Both the position numbers and the translations under genes were made by a program. Shown in pieces: positions 1 through 30,394 of a stretch of DNA of 31,826 nt (position 1 is the stretch's first letter; each line of letters starts with the position of its first letter). Source of the DNA: Bulinus truncatus (Eukaryota); the NCBI GenBank assembly GCA_021962125.1, contig JAGDYQ010000025.1, positions 5,913,217-5,945,042 of the forward strand, in the 5' to 3' direction. The notes under the pieces are model-generated. The model ran no database searches and had not been told where the DNA came from. It saw only the letters and a program-made list of their open reading frames with translations.

Positions 1-345
1 CTTAGACTTGATCGGTAGGCTAGGTTATTTTTTTCGTTTCGGGCAAATCCGATTTTTTCATGATTGTATCAACTGGTATACTGTTGTATTAATTCTTTAC
101 TTTCGATTTAACGCAGAACCTAAATCGCTATTATATTATTAGATTAAAACATATACTGCAAGTTAAATAGTATAGCGCTATAGAGAGAACAACCATCACT
201 TAAATGTGGGTTGTTGTTTTTGTTCGTTCACTATCGACTATATACTACACAATAACAAATAAGACTGTCACGCAACAAAGAATAGATCTAAACTCTACAT
301 CTAACATTTTAATGAATTACAAACTTGACGCCATCCCATCTCCAG

Positions 346-479
346 ACATTACGTAGCACCAGAAACATCTTCATCCTGAACCTGTCCGTCTGTGACGTCA
401 TTATGTGTTCTGTCTGTATGCCATTCTCTCTGGTGAAGTTGACCCTCAAGAAGTGGACCATGGGACTGGTCATGTGTAG
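346..479 (+). CDS. GPCR exon (TM2 to start of TM3) of an NPY/NPF-type class-A receptor. Phase 0 start, ends with 2 extra bases before GTAAGT.
   Basis: Translation TLRSTRNIFILNLSVCDVIMCSVCMPFSLVKLTLKKWTMGLVMC(R). It matches the NPY-receptor TM2 pattern N-I-x-I-x-NL-S-x-x-D, the LPF motif and the conserved Cys at the start of TM3. A pyrimidine-rich acceptor ccatcccatctccag lies at 331-345 and a donor gtaagt at 480-485. The frame is closed upstream by TGA at 313-315. Confidence 0.7.
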
Positions 480-610
480 GTAAGTGACACTGATCTTATG
501 TACAGATAGATGACACTCCTGTAGCGGTCAAGTAGTGAACTAGGTGGCCTCGTGCTACATTGACCCCATCTACCTTTGTCCTACGTGGTGTCCTAACCAC
601 TGTACCTTGA

Positions 611-1807: not shown

Positions 1808-2140
1808 ATGCCAACTGAAAGAAGAAATATCCCATCCTTACAGGGACCTCACAGCACAAAAACAATTGAAAGAAGAAATATCCCATCCTTTCAGGGACCT
1901 CACAGCGCAAAAACAATTGAAAGAAGAAATATCCCATCCTTACAGGGACCTCACAGCACAAAAACAATTGAAAGAAGAAATATCCCATCCTTACAGGGAC
2001 CTCACAGCACAAAAACAATTGAAAGAAGAAATATCCCATCCTTACAGGGACCTCACAGCACAAAAACAATTGAAAGAAGAAATATCCCATCCTTACAGGG
2101 ACCTCACAGCACAAAAACAATTGAAAGAAAAACTTCATGA
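1808..2140. repeat. 57-bp minisatellite with about 6 copies (unit gaaagaagaaatatcccatccttacagggacctcacagcacaaaaacaatt...).
   Basis: Perfect or near-perfect periodicity. The ORFs on both strands are repeat artefacts. Confidence 0.95.
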
Positions 2141-3600: not shown

Positions 3601-4033
3601 ATTAAGAACAAGTGAAATGTTTCAATCCGGTTTTATTTTTTAAAGTCAGAGCTGGAATTTGTACCTTTCCAGTTAAAGCAGAAAGTGCTGACCAGATGGA
3701 ACGGACATCCCACTGACAACCCTTTTCTTGGGATCCATTTTAATTGGGTTTCACATTTCACACAGACAACTGGAATAACAATTGCAACAAGAAGACAGTA
3801 CCTTTTATTTTGTTTAACTTGAATATTCAATATTGATATGTCTTCATCTGATCAGATCTTGCCAAATTCAGTTGTTGTTTTTTTGAAGGCGATGTTTCAA
3901 TATGTGGTGCGTTTGTCATGTGGAGCGTTCGTTATGTGGAGCGTTCGTTGTGCAAGTTGTTCGTTAAGTGAGGTACACTGTTTGGTCATAAATGATCACT
4001 TATGGCAGTCCAAATATTAATTCATCATTTTAG

Positions 4034-4235
4034 GATCATCACTGCCCTGGCTACTATTGATGTTTTGGTCTCAACGCTGACCATCATTGTTATTGCCGTA
4101 GACCGCTACTCCACCATTGTCCATACGTCCACGGTAACAACACGTCATGTCGTTTCAGCACTGGTCATTATCTGGACCCTGGCCATTGTATTGTCTACGC
4201 CACTGTTTTGTTTTCATAAGATTGATACTCAGGAG
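4034..4235 (+). CDS. GPCR exon (TM3 with the DRY motif through TM4). The first base completes the split codon AG|G.
   Basis: Translation (R)IITALATIDVLVSTLTIIVIAVDRYSTIVHTSTVTTRHVVSALVIIWTLAIVLSTPLFCFHKIDTQE. AVDRY corresponds to the E/DRY motif and the Trp in TM4 is present. Acceptor ttttag at 4028-4033 and donor gtaaat at 4236. The phase matches the upstream exon. Confidence 0.8.
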
Positions 4236-4377
4236 GTAAATAAATCTACAGATGCTGCAATGTTAGTTTTATGTGGAAAAGATGAATAATTTCTTAAACA
4301 TATTCTTTTTCTTAAAACAAAAGGCAGCAAGAACTTTTCCGTGTAACATTTGTATTATCTAAATTGATTTAAGTGTT

Positions 4378-4680: not shown

Positions 4681-4950
4681 TTTATTTATTAACTTTTAAA
4701 AAAAAAATAGGAATAACGAAAACATTAAATATAGAACAATGCGTGACAAGAAGACAGAACAGGGTCAATCGACATCAGTAGAGACAGGACGAAGACAATC
4801 GATAAATGTATTTTTTATTTAGAATAAAACTTACAAATGTTTTAAAACTTAATACTTATATAAAACATTTTATTAAAAGTCGCTCATTTTTTTACGTATT
4901 TCGAAACGGAAATATTAAACTCAAAAAAAAATTAGATGTTTAGCATGCTT

Positions 4951-5075
4951 AAAGCTATCCTCAAATCAAAGCGAAGCGTTCCGCTGTGCTATTTCTCACG
5001 TGAGATTTTTCAAAGTGCGAAAAACCCTCGCTACACCTAAGCGAAGCGAACGTAGGCGTCAGCCGACCGGGTATA
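4951..5075. mobile_element. Solo left arm (about 125 bp) of the same MITE family, roughly 90% identical to 6329-6450.
   Basis: Direct comparison of aagctatcctcaaatcaaagcgaagcgttccgctgtgctatttctcacgtgag... with the 6329 copy. Confidence 0.6.
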
Positions 5076-5382: not shown

Positions 5383-6315
5383 AAACAAATATCAGTAGGA
5401 AGTTTTACTTTTTCATTTTATTTGTCATGTTCTAAAATTTTATGAATCAGAATACTAAAAAATCTAATGGCAGTATACAGTTTGTCAAGGGCCCCTTTCG
5501 GGGTCCATGCGGTCGTTGTCTAAGAGCATGATCACCTACCGAGTTCTGGCCAGTATTTGTATTTGTCCCAGCCACGTGGTTCCACAGGACGCACACAACA
5601 CAACGAGAAAAGAGTACTCGACAAATGTAAATACAATACAACAGCAAATATTTATTTACATCAAAACAAGAATGAACATCAGCATGTCCTAAAAAGGGCA
5701 GTAGCTTTATCGGCTACTACACATAAATAGAAAAGTAAGCATTAAGACAGAATGGCCTTTACATGGGGCGGGTAGTTCTAAAAAGAACTCAGAACTGAGG
5801 TGGTCGAACATCTAAGTCCTGCCACGCTAACAGCCTGTTTCCCACGCCCCGGCAAAGAAACAGGGGAGTGCCTAGATTTCATTAAAACCAACTCAAAGAA
5901 TGTGACACAGTTGTATTATAAAAAAAATTGTTTCAGTCACAAAGTGAAGTTTTTTTGTTTTCTGTCTTTACCAGCACAGTTTGTGTGAGCCCACTACTGG
6001 CATACCTCGCATTTAATCCAGGGCTCTGAAGAAACTGACCATAATTCAGTTGGCCGAATTTACCCCTTAAACTCTGGCTTTTATTACCCCGTAACAAGGA
6101 GAGTGACATTTAGCGATTATTACGAAATAACTGGACAATATTGCCAATGAGCGATAACACAGACCTCATATGTATAAGATTTAATTTTTAATGCTACTTT
6201 ACCAACTCAAAATCTCGCGCCGTATAAAATAAAACTCTTCATTTTATGAAACAATAAAAAATACTCACTTTGCCCAAATTAGGATTTTGCTTTGTAAACA
6301 AGAAAAACTTTAATT

Positions 6316-7175
6316 TAATCTGATATAAAGCTTTCCTCTAACCAAAGCGAAGCGTACCGCTGTGCTATTTCTCACGTGAGATTTTTCAAAGCGCGAAAAT
6401 CCCTCGCTACACCTAAGCGAAGCGAACGTAGGCGTCAGCCGACCGGATATAATGATTTTTTTAATTTTCTTTTTGTTTATTTGAAGACGTCGGCAGACAT
6501 TTTCTTCTTATGATATATTTTCTACAGTTATGGTATTTTATAAGTAAAAAGTGAAAAAAAACACTTACTGTTTGGTATAATCTGATATAATTCAAGTTGC
6601 TATATATAAATGTAAGTCTTATTTGTTAATTTTAAGACATTTATATCAATTTTAACCTTGATTTTCATTTGAGTCGATGTTTCTAGGCAGCCATTTTGGA
6701 TTGTTTACACTCGCGAAACGCGAAAAAACTCTGAAAGAAGCGATGCCGCGAAATTTCTCTGCACCGCCGCGGAAATTCTACGCGGTTTGAGCATCTCCAT
6801 ATAAATACATTGCCGAGAAATAGGGGCGAATTTCGCGAGCTACCTAGATACGCGAAATTCGCTTTGGTTAGAGGAAAGCTTAATTCAAGTTGCTATATAT
6901 AAATGTAAGTCTTATTTGTTAATTTTAAGACATCTATATCAATTTTAACCTTGATTTTCATTTGAGTCGATGTTTCTAGGCAGCCATTTTGGATTGTTTA
7001 CACTCGCGAAACGCGAAAATACTCTGAAAGAAGCGATGCCGCGAAATTTCTCTGCACCGCCGCGGAAATTCTACGCGGTTTGAGCATCTCCATATAAATA
7101 CATTGCCGAGAAATAGGGGCGAATTTCGCGAGCTACCTAGATACGCGAAATTCGCTTTGGTTAGAGGAGAGCTTA
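6316..7175. mobile_element. MITE-like element with 22-bp TIRs (aagctttcctctaaccaaagcg). The ~293 bp right-hand unit is tandemly duplicated (6583-6882 and 6883-7175).
   Basis: The left end at 6329-6350 is the reverse complement of cgctttggttagaggaaagctt at 6861-6882 and again at 7154-7175 (this copy reads ...gagagctt). The element lies inside the first long GPCR intron. Confidence 0.6.
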
Positions 7176-7290
7176 ATTAAAACGCTTCCATTAATCAAAT
7201 TAAGTTGTTTTTTGTTTTTTTTGTTGTTTCTTTGTTCTTTGTTTTGCTTGTTTTTAAATACTGCTAGAACAAAATGGATTGTCTGTGCAG

Positions 7291-8045: not shown

Positions 8046-8622
8046 CACACATACTGAATTTTAATTAAGTAGAAGGCTTTAAACTTACAAAACCTATTGA
8101 GTAAAGATTGAAAAGAGATACTTATATCTTATTTACAAGTCATGTCACACTACCGTGTAGATAGATATAAAACACATTCACAGAGCACGTAATGCCATGC
8201 TACCAAGTAGAGAGACATTATTTATATTTACACTCAATAACGGAATGAATTATATCCCATTATTAAACACAACGTCGACTTACAATTATCAAAACTGAAT
8301 ATATGATAACAGTGAATCATCTGTTTAAGAAAGAACATTTAGAGATATAAAATAAATGGTAAAGTACTTTTAATGTAATTTAATAGACAATACAAGCTCA
8401 ACACTGATCTATTACTAATAAATATTTTAAAATGAACAATTAAAAGTACATGAATATAAATCATAACAATTATTAGATACACAGAAACACACGCTTTTTC
8501 CGTGGATATATAATACATTTTCTAAAGACACTAGACACCGGACTTAACGATCATTTTTTCTCCCTTTTTTTTAAATGCCAAACCGGCTTCAAGACAATTT
8601 ATCTATTTTTTTCATCTGCTAG

Positions 8623-8836: not shown

Positions 8837-8869
8837 GTGAGTATAAACTCTATATAAAAGCTGATCTAA

Positions 8870-9200
8870 ACGTCCGATAATAGTTCTAAAAATAGATGAT
8901 TTACGATACAAGGTAATAGTTCTATAAAACATGATTTAAGATACCAGCTAATAGTTCTATAAAATATATGATATGATACCAGGTAACAGTTCTATATAAT
9001 AGATGATCTAAGATACCAGCTAATAGTTCTATAAAATATATGATAAGATACCAGGTAACAGTTCTATATAATAGATGATCTAAGATACCAGGTAACAGTT
9101 CTATATAATAGATGATCTAAGATACCAGGTAACAGTTCTATATAATAGATGATCTAAGATACCAGGTAACAGTTCTATATTATAGATGATCTAAGACACG
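8870..9200. repeat. 37-bp minisatellite (...ataccaggtaacagttctatataatagatgatctaag...) with about 8 copies, starting about 35 bp after the donor of GPCR exon 4.
   Basis: Tandem periodicity. Confidence 0.9.
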
Positions 9201-11448: not shown

Positions 11449-12553
11449 TAAAAGAGTAACAATTGTTGCTGTAATATTGATCTGTGTAACAATTGTTGCT
11501 GTAATATTGAACTATGTAACACTTGTTGCTGTAATATTGAACTGTGAAACAATTGTTGCTGTAATGTTTAACTTTGTAACAATTGTTGCTGTAATACTGA
11601 GCTATTTAACAATTTTTGCTGTAATATTGAACTATACTGTAATATTAAACTATGTAACAATTGTTGCTGTAATATTGAACTGTGTAACCATTGTTGCTGT
11701 AATATTGAGCTGTGTAATAATTGTTGCTGTAATATTGAACTATGTAACAATTGTTGCTGTAATATTGAACTATGTAACAATTGTTGCTGTAATATTGAAC
11801 TATGTAACAATTGTTGCTGTAATATTGAACTGTGTAACAATGGTTGCTGTAATATTGAACTGCCTGACAATTGTTGCTGTAATATTGAACTATTTAACAA
11901 TTGTTGCTGTAATATTGAACTATGTAACAATTGTTGCTGTAATATTGAACTATGTAACAATTGTTGCTGTAATATTGAACTATGTAACAATTGTTGCTGT
12001 AATATTGAACTATGTAACAATTGTTGCTGTAATATTGAACTATGTAACAATTGTTGCTGTAATATTGAACTATGTAACAATTGTTGCTGTAATATTGAAC
12101 TATGTAACAATTGTTGCTGTAATATTGAACTATGTAACAATTGTTGCTGTAATATTGAACTATGTAACAATTGTTGCTGTAATATTGAACTATGTAACAA
12201 TTGTTGCTGTAATATTGAACTATGTAACAATTGTTGCTGTAATATTGAACTATGTAACAATTGTTGCTGTAATATTGAACTATGTAACAATTGTTGCTGT
12301 AATATTGAACTATGTAACAATTGTTGCTGTAATATTGAACTATGTAACAATTGTTGCTGTAATATTGAACTATGTAACAATTGTTGCTGTAATATTGAAC
12401 TATGTAACAATTGTTGCTGTAATATTGAACTATGTAACAATTGTTGCTGTAATATTGAACTATGTAACAATTGTTGCTGTAATATTGAACTATGTAACAA
12501 TTGTTGCTGTAATATTGAACTATGTAACAATTGTTGCTGTAATATTGAACTAT
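11449..12553. repeat. 30-bp satellite (ctatgtaacaattgttgctgtaatattgaa) of about 1.1 kb with roughly 37 copies, inside a GPCR intron.
   Basis: Highly homogeneous central copies with diverged edges. It is open in six frames, which yields the spurious 382-, 320- and 244-aa ORFs. Confidence 0.95.
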
Positions 12554-13136
12554 TGTTGTGGTTTTTAATCTACTCAGGTTAATAAATTGTTTCAATCTAT
12601 TTTTTAAATCTTCATACAATAGGAACAAACACTGTATTAATTAACGGCCTACGTTCATGTCGTATGAGATCTCTGGTTATTTCTACTCAGTTAATGTGCT
12701 GACAGCATATAGGGGCTACGTCACAGATCATTTTCTGATAACATGAAATAAATTAATTTAAAAAAAAAATATCTTGATAGAAAAGTAAATAATATTTACA
12801 GAAAAAACAAAATTATGAAAATAAAAAAAATCATAGATAGCATGCTGATATTATAAACAGTTGGCAGTGGCCATGACAGATATGTCTCATGTGCGGTCTT
12901 CGAAGTACGCGGGGTCTAGGACGAGTGATTCGAGAGCTAAGTCAGGGACGGTCGCCCCAGATGCCACACCCTAAGGCAAGTACTGGACTCATGAGAGAGC
13001 TAAAGATTAGTAGAGGTAGTATGTGTCTCTGAGGTCCACGCCCGCCCCATCCATATATCCACTGGTACACCAAACATTTCCCATTCTTGTTATTGTCACT
13101 AATTGTCAAGTTTATTTCTTTTCGCCCGCCATTAAT

Positions 13137-13335
13137 GTACACATCTCACCATACTTTGACCTACTTTATGTACACATCTCACCTTATTTTGACCTACTTT
13201 ATGTACACATCTCACCTTATTTTGACCTACTTTATGTACACATCTCACCGTATTTTGACCTACGTTATGTACACATCTCACCGTATTTTGACCTACTTTA
13301 TGTACACATCTCACCTTATTTTGACCTACTTTAGT
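13137..13335. repeat. 33-bp minisatellite (tacacatctcaccttattttgacctactttatg) with about 6 copies, ending about 80 bp upstream of the acceptor of the final GPCR exon.
   Basis: Tandem periodicity. The 103-aa and 84-aa ORFs here are artefacts. Confidence 0.9.
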
Positions 13336-13416
13336 AAATGATCTTTACTGTATTTAAGTGTTAGAATTATAACGTTCTTCATCTTGATTAATAGATATAT
13401 TTTTTTTATATCACAG

Positions 13417-14142
13417 GTTTTCCAAGAAAGTCAGTACAATTTGCTCCATGCTGTAAGCCTGCTGTTAGCTATGTCATCATCTGTAGCCAACCCTGTCATG
13501 TATGGTTGGTTCAATACCAACTTTAGGAAAGCATTTTGTGAGTTGCTCGGTTTCCAGGAGGTTGTTAGCGGAAACTTAAAATTTTCTAGCAACGACAGAC
13601 ATCATAAAAAATATTCAAGCTTAAGGAACCACCAGGAATACAATCAACTGTCCAGACCGCCAGTCAATTTTGACACCCAACTACCGCGGTTCCATTCCTC
13701 CCCAGTTTTAAGAATGCGCACTGGCAGGCATAGTTTGAATGACTTGTCAATGACTGACCGGAAACAGTTTTCTTTAGATAAATGTATGAAATGTTCACAC
13801 AGTCTTCATGACTTAAAACATTACAGATATAAAGAAGAAACATCATTACTGGAATACCAGCAAAATGCACTAGCTAAAGAAATCAGGTTGAAAATGACAG
13901 AGAGAAACCCTCTAGTGGTACACGGCCATGATGGTGTGTCTATAGGCCATCCTTATGGAGTGGAGTCCCTGCACAGACGAGATTGTTATATGGCTCATCA
14001 TGAATCTAGTTTAGCGATTTGTTCCCCGGATGACAAGACCGTCAGTCTTCATCTGCTCAATGTGGTGGTGGAAGTGTCCCCGGAGACCCGCTCCACCCAC
14101 CGGGCGCACAGCTCCAGCGATTTAGATACGGACTTGAAATAA
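13417..14142 (+). CDS. GPCR terminal exon: TM7 with NPxxY, helix 8 and a long C-terminal tail, ending at TAA 14140-14142.
   Basis: Translation VFQESQYNLLHAVSLLLAMSSSVANPVMYGWFNTNFRKAFCELL... NPVMYGWFNTNFRKAF aligns with NPY1R NPIFYGFLNKNFQRDL. Acceptor tatcacag at 13409-13416. The phase is continuous with the exon ending at 8836. This is a continuous 242-codon ORF. Confidence 0.85.
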   Translation, partial: VFQESQYNLLHAVSLLLAMSSSVANPVMYGWFNTNFRKAFCELLGFQEVVSGNLKFSSNDRHHKKYSSLRNHQEYNQLSRPPVNFDTQLPRFHSSPVLRMRTGRHSLNDLSMTDRKQFSLDKCMKCSHSLHDLKHYRYKEETSLLEYQQNALAKEIRLKMTERNPLVVHGHDGVSIGHPYGVESLHRRDCYMAHHESSLAICSPDDKTVSLHLLNVVVEVSPETRSTHRAHSSSDLDTDLK

Positions 14143-16667: not shown

Positions 16668-17425
16668 GTGAGACTCACTACAATACGTAGTTCTAGACAT
16701 GGTGTGGCGCCAGACTCACTACAATACGTAGTTCTAGAAATGGTGTGGCGTCAGACTCACTACAATACGTAGTTCTAGACATGGTGTGGCGCCAGACTCA
16801 CTACAATACGTAGTTCTAGAAATGGTGTGGCGTCAGACTCACTACAATACGTAGTTCTAGACATGGTGTGGCGCCAGACTCACTACAATACGTAGTTCTA
16901 GACATGGTGTGGCGCCAGACTCACTACAATACGTAGTTCTAGACATGGTGTGGCGCCAGACTCACTACAATACGTAGTTCTCGACATGGTGTGGCGCCAG
17001 ACTCACTACAATACGTAGTTCTCGACATGGTGTGACGCCAGACTCACTATAATACGTAGTTCTAGAAATGGTGTGGCGCCAGACTCACTACAATACGTAG
17101 TTCTAGAAATGGTGTGGCGCCAGGCTCACTACAATACGTAGTTCTAGAAATGAAGTGGCGCCAGACTCACTACAGTACGTAGTTCTAGAAATGAAGTGGC
17201 GCCAGACTCACTACAATAGAAATGGTGTGGCGCCAGACTCACTACAATACGTAGTTCTAGAAATGAAGTGGCGCCAGACTCACTACAATACGTAGTTCTA
17301 GAAATTGTGTGGCGCCAGACTCACTACAATACGTAGTTCTAGAAATGAAGTGGCGCCAGACTCACTACAGTACGTAGTTCTAGAAATGAAGTGGCGCCAG
17401 ACTCACTACAGTACGTAGTTCTAGA
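16668..17425. repeat. 41-bp satellite (agactcactacaatacgtagttctagacatggtgtggcgcc) with about 18 copies.
   Basis: Direct tandem periodicity with the variants agacatgg and agaaatgaag. Confidence 0.95.
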
Positions 17426-17961: not shown

Positions 17962-18400
17962 TGAAATGTATTCTAATATATTGTAATGTATTAAAATGTA
18001 ATATTATGTATTATTATGTATTATTTTGTATTATTATATATTCTAATGTATTTTAATATAATGTGAAATATAATGTAATATAATGTAATATAATGTATTC
18101 TAATGTAATATAATGTAAAATATAATGTATTCTAATATAATATATTGTATTATAATGTAAAATATAATGTATTATAATGTAATATAATGTAAAATATATT
18201 GTATTATTATGTAATACAATGTATTATAATGTATTTTAATGTAATATAATGTATTCTAATGTAATATATTGTATTTTTATGTAATATATTGTATTTTAAT
18301 GTAATATATTGTATTATAATGTAATATAATGTATTATAATGTAATATAATGTATTATAATGTAATATATTGTATTATAATGTATTCTAATGCTACTTGTC
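17962..18400. repeat. AT-rich 10-bp-period simple repeat (tgtaatataa / tgtattataa)n.
   Basis: Visible periodicity. Confidence 0.85.
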
Positions 18401-18478: not shown

Positions 18479-19970
18479 TTAGGGGCTGTTCATTAATTAT
18501 GTCAACAATTTTTTGGCGATTTTTACATTCCCCCGTTCCCCTTGTCAACAACTTGTCAAACTTACAGAGACCCCCCCCCACCCCATATAAACGTATCAAC
18601 ATTCGACAATAAAATGGGGAAAAAAATACTTTAAATAGACTAGTTTACAACTACAACAAAAAAGTGAATAAATGTAAAATGTTTGAAAAAAAAGTTAAAT
18701 AAACTTTTAACTTATGAATATATTTCTAATTTATAACTATAAAGGCCTACCCTAAACAGAAAAAGAGATTATAGGGTTTAAAAAATTGTATACACATTAC
18801 ACCTTTAAATTATGAACATATTTCAAATTAAATATCACTTTAAAGACTATTTAAATGTTTACAAAGACTTGTTCTAACTTCAAGCAGAAACGAGATTAAA
18901 AAGTTAAACTATAAATACACTTTTAAGTTATTAACATAATATTTTACAAACAAATACAAATCTTATATCCTAGCCTCTATATCTTCCCATGGAAATGTCA
19001 AATGTTCCTCAATTGTTATTATTGGCATAGGTTCTGGCTGAATAATTTCTTGTGGAACCGCAACAACAGATGAGTATATATTTTCTTCATCTAGCCATTC
19101 TGCGCGCATTTCCCCATGAGCAATAATTGTCATGAGCTCTCTGTCTTTTGGCAACCACTCGCATTGGACGAATTCTTTGCATGTAGTATTTGACTGGGGG
19201 CAGGCATACATTGTTTGTGCTGTTGAACGTGCTTCTTTAACATGGCTTGCGATGCAACATAAAGGTGACAGATTTTACAGATTAGTTCAAACTATAGCAG
19301 CTGAATAGATGGACAACATATATCACGCAGAAGAATTTTGAATGCTTTTTGTAGTATGTTTTCAACTTTCACAGACTGATTGAAAAAAATAGATGGAAAT
19401 CTATGTGAGTTTTTATCAGATACATCTGGTGCTTTAAGGCCCTCATTAGTTTGGCAGACTGGAATTGGTGGGGGTATAAATCTATCAGCCATAATATCAA
19501 AGCACGAGCTTCTAAGCGGTTGGCAACATTTGACAACTTGTAGAAAGTACTGACTTGTTCTTACAAGTACTTGATCTTTAATTATTAAATTTTCAACTTC
19601 AAGCTCAGACTTTTCAGGCACAATGTACACTGCCACTGATGGAAAATTGTCTATGCTTACTTGCTTCCATATTTCTGTCAATGTTTCGCCAGCATATTTC
19701 AGGTTTATTTTTCTCAACTTTTCATCAATTGTTCGACCTTGTGTCAATGTGGCTTCCAAAATGTTTATGTGGCAAAATTAGTAGGAATATAGTTAGTTTA
19801 ATTAAAATACTGAAGGTTGGGTGAGTGTATAACACAGAAATACAAAGGCAGTTTAATTATCCGTTGTTAAGTAATTAAATGAATTTAAAGAAAATAACAT
19901 TGTTGACGTCAACTTTTCTTGACCTCACCCTCCCCCTATTTTGTTGACATAATTAACGGACAACCCCTTA
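18479..19970. mobile_element. DNA-transposon-like element of about 1.49 kb bounded by imperfect 30-bp terminal inverted repeats and containing the unidentified ORF pair.
   Basis: The left end ttaggggctgttcattaattatgtcaacaa (18479-18508) matches the reverse complement of 19941-19970, taaggggttgtccgttaattatgtcaacaa, at 26 of 30 positions. Both ends carry subterminal gtcaacaa / ttgtcaaca repeats and C-rich tracts. The right end abuts a (CA)n run. Confidence 0.55.
18963..19759 (-). pseudogene. Unidentified coding region on the minus strand. It consists of a 155-aa ORF (19759-19292) and an 82-aa ORF (19211-18963) that are offset by one frame. It could be a frameshifted gene, a gene with a short intron, or the ORF of a transposable element. 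No homolog was recognised.
   Basis: Two long stop-free stretches sit in a ~33% GC background where random ORFs this long are rare. The second frame stays open back to within about 15 nt of the first ORF's stop codon. The pair lies inside a 30-bp TIR-bounded unit (18479-19970). Confidence 0.35.
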
Positions 19971-20026
19971 CACACACACACACACACCGATCGCTAAGCA
20001 ATTAATATCGTAGACTAATGTAACTC

Positions 20027-20405
20027 ACGACTCATTTATCAGTAGTGAAACACTCAAGACTTATTTATCAGTAGTGAAACACTCAAGACTCATTTATCAG
20101 TAGTGAAACACTCAAGACTTATTTATCAGTAGTGAAACACTCAAGACTTATTTATCAGTAGTGAAACACTCAAGACTTATTTATCTGTAGTGAAACACTC
20201 AAGACTTATTTATCAGTAGTGAAACACTCAAGACTTATTTATCTGTAGTGAAACACTCAAGACTTATTTATCAGTAGTGAAACACTCAAGACTTATTTAT
20301 CAGTAGTGAAACACTCAAGACTTATTTATCAGTAGTGAAACACTCAATACTCATTTATCAGTAGTGAAACACTCAAGACTTATTTATCAGTAGTGAAACA
20401 CTCAT
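20027..20405. repeat. 29-bp minisatellite (actcaagacttatttatcagtagtgaaac) with about 13 copies.
   Basis: Tandem periodicity. It lies immediately downstream of the TIR element and its (CA)n run. Confidence 0.95.
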
Positions 20406-21379
20406 GATCAAAACTAGACTTAGAAAGTGTGGAATTTGATAGGGAACGAATAATTTATCACCCAGGCTGCATACATGATTCTTTAATGTCCATAATTTTG
20501 AATACCCGGCAGCTCATTAGTCAAAAGTTAAGTTCATTGGTGCCGACTCCGCTTCTGAAAAGGGGGTGGGGGCAATAGAGAGCAACTGTTTTAGTTTACT
20601 TACCAGGATGTTAAGACATTGATTTAACTAGGTACTGCAACAAATGATAAATATTGCAATGTAACATTGATAGCCCATTAACATAGCATTGAAATATTTT
20701 CATAGCAAGAACAGAAAAGAAAGGGTTTTATAACTTTAAGAAAAAGTCATTGAATTGAATTCACAGACAAGTACTTTTGTTATCAAAAGCAACAACAACT
20801 ATATTTCAATAATATCCATCCATTAGTATAGAACCAAAGTTCTATTTCAGCCATAATCATGAATGACTATCAAATCTTAATGAAAAGCTAAATAATAATC
20901 TAGCTAATCCCTCGCTAATCCGATCACAAACTTTTACATTCATCCGAAACAGATAAAGAGTTTTAAAATGTAAAGATCAGTGAAGAAACGTGTTTTCGAA
21001 ACTTACGCTGTATGATTATTTACTTAGTGATAAACGTTCAAACACCAGTTGACTGTATCAGTAAGTAGATACTGTAATATGTCATTTATCTTCATTATTC
21101 CCAGCGATCCACTCAAGTATGAGATTATAAGTAGACTCTCGGGACCCAGAGAAAATCATGTTTATATTTAGACAGAGAGATAATACTAAGTCAAAGTTGT
21201 CTTTAAGCAAAGAAACAAGTTGCACACAACGGGGGATCATAGACTCATAGGGAAATGTGTCTTTTTCTTTACATTCATGTAACAGCTGAGTGTCAGTAGT
21301 GTGGAAAAAACTAATAGTCACTATGAGTATTGTAAACTATAAAAAAATTTTCTTAACCTCTCATTTTTCTGATATCCTT

Positions 21380-21960
21380 TAACAGTATATTTTTGGCGCC
21401 ACCACTGCTAGCATGACAGAGTGTTGTGTGCCATCCGCAAGAGCTTCATTGGCGCCGCATGATGCGTGTCTGCCATGCCTACAGAGCGGCGGTGTGAATG
21501 TGTCTACTACATCTGCCAGGGGACGGATGATCATGTGGTAAAGCACTCGACAGTCGACCTGAAAGTCCCTGGTGTGATCTCCGGTGAGGACCAATGGATA
21601 TTTGTCATGGCTTAAGTCCCCGCTATATCTCCCGTGGTGCCTCCATGGCCATTGCACTATCGGCTATGATAGGGATGAAAAAAGGAAACCATCCCATTAG
21701 TGGTTTATGGGATCTAAGAGATTTCATCTCATCCTTACAGGGACTGCACACACTACATCTACCAGCATGGCAGAAAAAGGGCGGCTGAAAAAAGCAGGCT
21801 GCGAGAATACCTGAGTGGGACAGAGTGGAATGGTGTTGTGCTGACACCATCCGTCACAAACCCCCAGCTGTGAATACCATGTTCACTGCTTTACCTCATT
21901 GGCTGTGGTATTACCACTGGCGCAAAAAGGTTTTTTTTTCTAATCTGGCCAGAAGACACC
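21380..21960. mobile_element. GC-rich interspersed repeat, SINE-like, containing A-box-like ...cagtggt... motifs.
   Basis: There is an abrupt rise in GC content relative to the flanks. The segment 21610-21760 recurs in diverged form at 30160-30300, and its tail is related to the 57-bp satellite at 1808-2140. The ORFs called here on both strands are not credible proteins. Confidence 0.45.
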
Positions 21961-23476: not shown

Positions 23477-24716
23477 CTAATTGAGCATGGAGGGGGGAAA
23501 ATGTCACATTAATGAAAAATTAAATCACAAATTTGTTATTTGGTTAAAAGTTTCTAGTAGCAAAGCTATCACTTTTTATACAATGAAGTAGAGATTTTCA
23601 GCCTGATTCATAAAAAGGTCAATGTAAGGGTGAGACATCTCATGATTCTATATCAATTTTGTATCAACCACAGAGATAGTTCTGTGGGGTCTTTTTCAAA
23701 TCCCAGCCAGAGCTGAAGCTGAGCTGGAAGCACTACAGAGTTCATAGGGAAATGGTGTCATAAAGATTTGAACCCGTAATCTACACCTTATGATCAGGCT
23801 GACATGTCACTACAAATACTGTAGTGAGGAAAGTTGAGTTCTCTGCTATCTTGTAACACACATTAGATTTTGTTCAGGTTTACATTGAATAAACTATAAA
23901 TCTTCTTATCTCTTGTAGTTTCATCTGCAACACCTTCGGCTTAAAAGCATTTAATTAAAGGTGATGTTTAGATCACTAGATATTACACCTGGTATACTGA
24001 TCAGTATGACATACTTTTGATAATCATCAATTTTAAGCACTCTAAAGATGCATTCTGTGATTCTAAAAATGCTGCAGGTACTTTCTGTAGAGCTCTAACG
24101 CAAACCATAGCCAAGGATGTAATGAAGGCACTAAGATGACAACTTTTACCACAGTCTTCCACAAGAGTTGAAAATAAAGTACTTGGGATTCCATCCCATG
24201 ACCTACTTCTTGTTGCTAAGACTAACAATCACATCTCCATTAAGCCACAGTAAACAAACACTTTACTATTTTGAATCAACTTTAAATTTCCCACATCCTC
24301 TTATAGAAACAAATATTCTATTGAAAAGAAGTGATGCAGATATTAACTTTTATCTATAATATACATGTATATATAAAAAGAACTAAGAATGTGATATTTT
24401 AGAATGTGTGAACTCAATTTAAATGTCTGCTTGACTTTCAACACTCTGAAGTAACATTAAATTCTGTATATCTATTGCAGTGCTGGATATAAGTTCATGG
24501 CAAACTAAACAAGCAGAAGCTTTATTGTTATATTTTTTTTTTTACTAAAACCTCTCCATTTATGGAAAAAAAATGCATTTGATATTTTAAAGTTTCATTG
24601 TATTAAATACTACAAAAAATTACTTGATGTGAAGTATTTATTGATCGTATGTCTCACAGTAGAGCATGAGAATAAACAAATTTAAAAAAAAAAAAGTTAT
24701 CCCTCTTAATCATCAC

Positions 24717-29352: not shown

Positions 29353-29447
29353 CTCATTAACTGCTCTACTTCCTCACTTAATTCTTTTTCCCACAATTCT
29401 TCAGTGGCAGTTAACATATAGGAACAAGGTCCCATAACTAGGCGAAC
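29353..29447 (-). CDS. MVP: MVP exon
   Basis: VRLVMGPCSYMLTATEELWEKELSEEVEQLM, compared with human [32 protein letters not shown]. Acceptor tttctcag, donor gtaatt. Confidence 0.9.
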
Positions 29448-29695
29448 CTGAGAAATGTACATAATACAAGTTACTTGTGTACGATACCTGAGTAATGTAC
29501 GTAATATGAGTAACTTGTGTATGATACCTGAGTAATGTAGTAATACGAATTACTTGTGTATGATTGAACCTGAGTAATGTACATAATACAAGTTACTTGT
29601 GTATGATACCTGAGTAATGTACATAATACGAGTAACTTGTGTATGATAGAACCTGAGTAATGTACGTAACATGAGTAACTTGTTTATGTTAGTTA
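29446..29695. repeat. Minisatellite of about 40 bp (acctgagtaatgtacataatacaagttacttgtgtatgat) with about 6 copies, abutting the acceptor of MVP exon 29353-29447.
   Basis: Tandem periodicity. Each unit contains cctgag, which in minus sense reads ctcag|gt and mimics the true acceptor. Confidence 0.9.
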
Positions 29696-30159: not shown

Positions 30160-30300
30160 ACTTAAGTTGTCCTAGTCACTAACCTATCTCCATGTCTCCA
30201 CAGCCATTGCATTCTCTGCAATAGCAGGAACTACAAAAATCATCCCAATAGTGGTTTATTGAATATAACAGAGAATTATCTCATCCTTACAGTGACTTAC
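30160..30300. mobile_element. Partial second copy of the interspersed repeat at 21610-21760, in the same orientation. It lies inside an MVP intron.
   Basis: ...cttaagttgtcctagtcactaacctatctccatgtctccacagccattgcattc...catcccaatagtggtttattg...atctcatccttacagtgac aligns with ...cttaagtccccgctatatctcccgtggtgcctccatggccattgcact...catcccattagtggtttatgg...atctcatccttacagggac. Confidence 0.55.
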
Positions 30301-30394
30301 ATTACAAAATGTACAAACATTTTTTTAAAAAAAGTAGCCTATTACAGCAGAGAAAAATAATTTAAATTTTAAATATACTTTTAAAAATTCTTAC

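Follow-up and report, generated by a model that had tools for sequence, protein, structure and literature searches.

How did a short tandem array come to lie within a gene of Bulinus truncatus, and why does each of its units carry a string that is also found at dispersed positions nearby? The window, that is, the whole stretch of 31,826 nucleotides analysed here, is eukaryotic and AT-rich (G+C about 0.33). Bulinus truncatus is a planorbid snail. Tandem repeats are dense in the window, with 33 TRF rows that correspond to about 17 distinct arrays in 32 kb. A rhodopsin-type GPCR gene is encoded on the plus strand (exons in Table 1), and its last exon is identical to the Bulinus truncatus 'hypothetical protein Btru_034659' at 234 of 241 amino acids (97%). 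The array is bracketed by two further exons of this gene (325-483 and 4002-4289) and is therefore intronic; its orientation is sense relative to the host gene. Btru_034659 is itself a 'partial' gene model, apparently without the upstream exons that are present in the window (325-483, 4002-4289). Elsewhere in the window, a 155-aa ORF lies outside the tandem repeats on the minus strand (19292-19759); it matched nothing in Pfam, and no identical record was present in the collections.

Table 1 Positions of the array, the dispersed element copies and the exons of the host gene within the window
Feature	Position	Strand	Basis
Tandem array, period 51 bp, 6.2 copies, 318 bp	1812-2129	+	TRF (98% matches), repeat-family search, unit alignment
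Leftmost 12-mer CAACTGAAAGAA, proposed 5' copy of the target-site duplication (TSD); the same 12-mer opens every unit	1812-1823	+	Unit alignment, direct-repeat search
First 39-bp segment GAAATATCCCATCCTTACAGGGACCTCACAGCACAAAAA, homologous to the element 3' end, plus a run of 5 A	1824-1862	+	Alignment, nhmmer
Terminal 12-mer CAATTGAAAGAA, closes the array, proposed 3' TSD copy	2118-2129	+	Unit alignment, direct-repeat search
Copy B, 232 bp, starts GGGACGGATGATCATGTGG, ends ATCTCATCCTTACAGGGACTGCACAC	21520-21751	+	Flanking 14-bp direct repeat; homology to copy C
Candidate TSD of copy B, 5' copy ACTACATCTGCCAG	21506-21519	+	Direct-repeat search
Candidate TSD of copy B, 3' copy ACTACATCTACCAG	21752-21765	+	Direct-repeat search
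Copy C, 5' limit uncertain; only the 3' ~130 bp align to copy B	30177-30309	+	nhmmer (E 9e-40), blastn
Copy D, more distant relative of the 3' module, ends GTCTCACCCTTACATTGACC	23730-23617	-	nhmmer profile of B+C
GPCR TM2-like exon in ORF, NIFILNLSVCD	325-483	+	ORF translation; TM2 reading by eye
GPCR exon with TM3, DRY motif and TM4	4002-4289	+	Pfam 7tm_1, E 2.5e-10
Last GPCR exon, NPVMY motif and long C-terminal tail	13384-14142	+	Protein match to Btru_034659

The first-pass annotation had described this array as a satellite with a 57-bp unit at 1808-2140. TRF, a repeat-family search and unit alignment all gave a period of 51 bp instead, and 1808-2140 turned out to be the coordinates of an open reading frame that runs through the array rather than those of the array, which occupies 1812-2129. 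Its length of 318 bp is exactly 6x51+12, and its consensus unit is CAATTGAAAGAAGAAATATCCCATCCTTACAGGGACCTCACAGCACAAAAA. Each unit is composed of the 12-mer CAAYTGAAAGAA and a 39-bp segment; the latter (GAAATATCCCATCCTTACAGGGACCTCACAGCACAAAAA) repeats each 51 bp as far as 2117, where the terminal 12-mer follows. Units 3-6 are identical. The variants are the first two units, at the left end, with one change in unit 1 and two in unit 2. The string ATCCCATCCTTACAGGGACCTCACAGCAC occurs in the array five times exactly and once with two mismatches. Satellite DNA proper forms arrays of kilobases to megabases at high copy number, which a 318-bp array does not; 'minisatellite' is the fitting term for an intronic array of 6.2 units, and 'satellite' was an overstatement. 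No second array of the 51-bp unit was found in the window.

Three ORFs of 110-114 aa pass through the array (1800-2210, both strands), the period being equal to 17 codons. These ORFs, the one at 1808-2140 and two others, are repeat artefacts and not genes. No homologues were found in the protein database for the array ORFs or for the concatenated reading frames of the array. Every unit also contains a string that looks like a 3' splice acceptor, tcccatccttacag/G, on the same strand as the host gene.

The array and the dispersed loci do share a core, as had been claimed. In copy B the core reads ATCTCATCCTTACAGGGACTGCACACAC (21726-21753) and in copy C ATCTCATCCTTACAGTGAC (30278-30296). The match between the array unit and copy B, previously given as 24 of 28 identical, comes to 24 identical positions in a 29-column alignment with one gap (1829-1857 against 21726-21753), and the match to copy C is longer than had been proposed, extending over 39 columns at 82% identity (1823-1861 against 30272-30309). 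Short as it is (25-39 bp), the similarity is above chance. The degenerate 19-mer ATCYCATCCTTACAGKGAC matched only the array and the dispersed loci, with no match in 100 dinucleotide shuffles; similarly, a 25-mer of copy C, with three mismatches allowed, found the same loci only and nothing in 100 dinucleotide shuffles. When two array units were searched against the window by blastn, copy C was recovered at E = 4.9e-5, copy B at 0.003 and copy D at 0.05. An nhmmer profile of B and C matched every unit of the array at profile positions 102-131 (E about 1.6e-3 to 2e-3). Alignment of the three loci that had been linked before thus revealed real homology, and a fourth locus, copy D (23730-23617, minus strand), had been missed.

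As a control, the 17 arrays of the window were put through the same blastn comparison as the 51-bp array. The 51-bp array was the only one of the 17 with all its off-array matches on one site of a dispersed family; off-array matches were also seen for a few other arrays, including a 293-bp dimer, a low-complexity 20-bp array and a 30-bp array. A metagenome scan with the core pattern returned 32 loci, none of which was similar beyond the pattern, and these are therefore chance matches. The published literature was also searched for the sequence strings, which yielded nothing relevant and no paper printing these sequences.

The dispersed loci show what the core belongs to. Copies B and C are homologous to each other (72% over 134 bp, blastn E = 8.8e-16; alignment z = 26.8), and copy D was matched by the B+C profile (E = 2.8e-4, profile positions 21-127). 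The core is therefore part of a module of at least 110-130 bp and is present once per dispersed locus. The core site is the best-conserved stretch of the dispersed copies, and B, C and D are all matched at this same homologous site. Copy C is an older, AT-decayed copy. The 14-bp direct repeat around copy B has one mismatch, and a 14-mer with no more than one mismatch was obtained in 1 of 2000 shuffles. Because this direct repeat ends the element right after the core, the core is placed at the 3' end of the element. It makes up the last 26 bases of copy B, with the 3' end lying 7 bases past GGGAC, and the terminus of the element reads ...ATCYCATCCTTACAGKGAC(N)CACAC. A TSD search around C and D found only AT-rich or weak 9-mers, nothing convincing.

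Copy B lies in a GC-richer block, with a G+C of 0.43 against about 0.30 in the flanks. By eye, direct repeats can be seen inside this block (21380-21940), one of them being GACAGAGTG...CCATCCG at about 21416-21445 and again at about 21820-21862, and CTGCTAGCATGACAGA at 21405-21420 resembles the reconstructed insertion site of copy B. The block may be an older repeat that received the B insertion. A paralogous 'empty site' for B within the block was considered and rejected, the match over the junction being weak (14/16, z about 2).

The parent of these copies is best explained as a small non-autonomous retroelement of about 230 bp, with at least three old dispersed copies in the window (B, C and D). 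The earlier label 'SINE-like' is plausible. The copies are short and dispersed, as SINEs are (non-coding and below about 600 bp), with 232 bp for copy B and three copies in 32 kb. Copy B contains no long ORF, an overlapping 92-aa ORF being without a Pfam match, and a protein-database search with the concatenated reading frames of element B gave no matches. A flanking TSD is present for copy B (14 bp, one mismatch), with weak 9-mers only for C and D. The label did not hold for the head of the element, where a tRNA, 5S or 7SL sequence with an internal pol III promoter is expected of a SINE. Rfam gave no match to B, C or D at E up to 10 and none of relevance in the whole window at E up to 1, and ARAGORN returned nothing with its threshold at 100% or 90%, and what it returned at 80% was noise; these searches used old, single copies, for which a consensus might still reveal a head. 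With no tRNA-like head detected, the element is therefore only a putative SINE.

Three smaller observations concern the same element. A homology between the heads of B and C, proposed by eye, was not significant, the observed score being reached by 141 of 500 shuffles. A conserved RNA structure of the tail was equally rejected (fold of B z = -0.53; a 6-bp hairpin without covariation). Upstream of copy D, at about 23772-23762 (region 23760-23830, minus strand), lies GGGTTCAAATC, which resembles a tRNA T-arm or B box. Together with the sequence preceding it, it may be a decayed tRNA-derived head; Rfam and ARAGORN were negative.

The dispersed copies could instead be 5'-truncated LINE 3' ends, with the array made from a LINE tail, although we find this doubtful. 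Such a parentage would only rename the parent element, and it is compatible both with the origin of the array that we prefer and with its main rival, each set out below. It agrees with the lack of a detectable tRNA-like head (Rfam, ARAGORN) and with a B-C homology limited to the last 130-150 bp or so, beyond which the heads are not significantly alike, a pattern that is expected under variable 5' truncation. It agrees less well with copy B, which measures just 232 bp between its direct repeats, starts with GGGACGG and has strings that resemble pol III box A and box B by eye only (GTGGTAAAGCAC; GGTGTGATCTCC). The string GGGTTCAAATC upstream of the module in copy D also speaks against it, as does the absence of a reverse-transcriptase ORF near the copies; no LINE was found in the window. 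If a LINE 3' UTR ended in ATCTCATCCTTACAGGGAC..., that LINE would be the partner of the element.

With a small non-autonomous retroelement as parent, the origin of the array can be considered. We regard it as likely that tandem duplication, by whatever route, made the array out of the 3' end of the dispersed element. That it is a TE-derived minisatellite in a Bulinus GPCR intron which arose through a TSD-mediated route in particular is an even call. By this route, a severely 5'-truncated copy, 39 bp in total and consisting of the last ~34 bases of the element plus 5 A, would have inserted into the intron and duplicated the 12-bp target CAAYTGAAAGAA. The two 12-bp direct repeats, 51 bp apart, would then have mispaired through unequal recombination or replication slippage. 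A target-site triplication would have been produced first, followed by a TSD-(insert-TSD)n array, which has six units today.

The anatomy of the array is consistent with this course of events. In a TSD-(TE fragment-TSD)n array the unit is a fragment plus a TSD and the array is bracketed by the TSD; here the array starts with CAACTGAAAGAA and ends with CAATTGAAAGAA, and it is because of this architecture that the 12-mer is called a TSD. Only the fragment should be homologous to the element. The alignment to copy C covers 1823-1861 where 1824-1862 was predicted, an offset of one base, and a gapped alignment hints at more homology (p = 0.016). The array alignment ends where the direct repeat of B sets the terminus of the element, and the run of 5 A comes next in the array. 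Counted by hand, position for position, the 12-mer agrees with the sequence preceding the tail at 2 of 12 bases in copy B and 5 of 12 in copy C. Against this reading, chance alone would make a 12-bp overhang coincide with the alignment limits in about 3 of 51 phases. Similarity among the array units is 98%, compared with 72% for the dispersed copies, so the array is younger than the element family or has been homogenised relative to it. The idea of a mobile-element tail as the source of the array is therefore upheld as the best reading in view of the core at the element 3' terminus, while the direction from element to array is one that we infer and favour. No function of the array is implied, and neutral repeat turnover is most likely.

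The main rival, which we judge rather unlikely, is an internal duplication of 51 bp near the 3' end, by slippage or unequal exchange, in a longer, decayed or 5'-truncated copy of the element. At least about 90 bp of the element would then once have been present at the array locus, and the 12-mer would be element sequence. Traces of such sequence may be present. The 45 bases to the left (1778-1822) align to B/C better than 98.4% of random window segments (p about 0.016), the local alignment of the array locus with copy B reaches about 55 columns upstream of the core, and C and D have ATTGA about 22 bases before TCTCA, resembling AATTGAAAG of the unit. However, the left flank gave p = 0.38 in a semi-global test and p = 0.06 in a local test, and with 12.6 bits in the nhmmer search the first unit does not outscore the internal ones. 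An internal duplication also requires a deletion of 5-6 bases in the unit, and under it the exact end of the ungapped homology at the 12-mer is left unexplained. The stronger proposal, in which the array locus would be a complete third copy whose tail was amplified, is unsupported by the same left-flank tests (p = 0.06 and p = 0.38).

The reverse direction, in which an older 51-bp tandem family gave a monomer to the 3' tail of the element, is highly improbable. Homology alone gives no direction, and molluscs do provide cases in which a non-autonomous element has captured tandem repeats, such as the oyster Helentron arrays (PMC7492417). Nevertheless, B, C and D each have a single core, embedded in a module that they share upstream of it and that measures at least 110 bp; they carry neither the 12-mer nor a second monomer, and at 72% they have diverged much further than the array units (98%). 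These points speak against the reverse direction. Finally, it is barely credible that the resemblance is due to chance or low complexity, or to convergence on the splice-acceptor-like string tcccatccttacag/G: the match is short, the window is AT-rich with a few exact 15-mers expected in 32 kb all-against-all by our own estimate, and the core does look like a 3' splice site, but none of the 100 shuffles matched, the E values were 5e-5 and 3e-3 (blastn) and about 2e-3 per unit (profile), all three dispersed copies were matched at one homologous, best-conserved site, and the core is not low-complexity.

The making of tandem repeats from retroelement tails is already well known, and the TSD-mediated type has already been described in molluscs. 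Arrays of the form TSD1-(SINE-TSD1)n are described in bivalve genomes, including introns (Mob DNA 2024, PMC11481361), where they arise by unequal recombination between target-site duplications (PMC11481361); in human, target-site triplication of Alu was shown by Lee et al. 2015, as cited in PMC11481361. The Bulinus array is like the bivalve arrays in that its unit is an identically truncated retroelement fragment plus one TSD copy, and in being bracketed by the TSD, in its intronic location, which is frequent there, and in its mollusc host. It differs in that the fragment is 39 bp long and taken from the extreme 3' end, whereas the bivalve survey counted only those of at least 150 bp. Its host, moreover, is a gastropod; the parent is a putative SINE, and the TSD is one that we infer.

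In squamate SINE-derived satellites (sSats), a longer terminal unit typically runs into the SINE (Vassetzky et al., Mob DNA 2023, PMC10702118), which is the arrangement that the internal-duplication rival would share. These are similar to the present case as tandem repeats from a portion of a SINE, with short loci of few units beside the parent dispersed copies, whereas they occupy many loci with up to ~1000 units and here one six-unit locus lies in the window. When the terminal units of the Bulinus array were considered in this way, the 3' unit was found to reach the element terminus, in line with the direct-repeat boundary of copy B; on the 5' side the results are contradictory (12.6 bits and p = 0.38 against p = 0.016). 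About 23% of human tandem arrays are TE-derived (review, Cells 2022, PMC9659126). The Alu-associated human minisatellites are also alike, with a short piece of a non-autonomous retroelement, often the 3' region, seeding a local array (PMC9659126); the differences are host and element, and conceptually there are none.

Two further systems can be compared. The oyster Helentron/pearl arrays (Sci Rep 2020, PMC7492417) are similar in belonging to a mollusc genome with many short dispersed arrays linked to mobile elements. They lie inside the element between conserved left and right flanks, whereas the dispersed copies in the window carry a single monomer-equivalent. Recurring element arms were not found around the Bulinus array, the flank at 1560-1811 being without a significant match elsewhere in the window. 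The TE double insertion model (McGurk and Barbash, Genome Res 2018, PMC5932611) likewise has tandem TE dimers as the seed of an array. The model is reported to involve two insertions at one site, whereas a single insertion plus TSD exchange would suffice here.

The locus leaves knowledge of repeat biology unchanged. It offers a clean small example, from a schistosome-vector snail, of a retroelement insertion that appears to have turned minisatellite, and its 12+39 architecture keeps the apparent founding insertion together with its target-site duplication. For annotation, the array belongs in one masked repeat family together with copies B, C and D. A bolder proposal is that the tail core has seeded tandem arrays repeatedly throughout the Bulinus genome and that exonisation could add the array to the GPCR transcript, as 17-codon repeats in frame; we consider this very unlikely. 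Exonisation is suggested by six acceptor-like sites in tandem (tcccatccttacag/G) together with two open reading frames. If the seed were recurrent, Bulinus would have a gastropod counterpart of the squamate sSats, a satellite family derived from a SINE/LINE tail.

Other repeats of the window were recorded along with the array. A 293-bp tandem dimer at 6588-7178 (98%) shares segments with dispersed repeats nearby, at 4911-5075, 6296-6451 and 8418-8463. These relatives include the pair 4950-5075 and 6326-6451, at 94%; blastn matches of the dimer had E values of 2e-5 to 7e-3. The dimer forms a second tandem-dispersed link in the window. The density of minisatellites is unusually high. They are found at 11456-12553 (30-bp unit, about 36 copies), 16671-17425 (41-bp, 18.7 copies), 20023-20404 (29-bp, 13 copies), 8849-9196 (37-bp, 9.6 copies), 13135-13333 (33-bp, 6 copies), 17965-18391 (AT-rich 10/20-bp unit) and 29446-29688 (40-bp, 5.9 copies). 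The 30-bp array contains an artefactual ORF of 382 aa; outside its own limits it is matched once, at 20633-20666 (E = 0.003).
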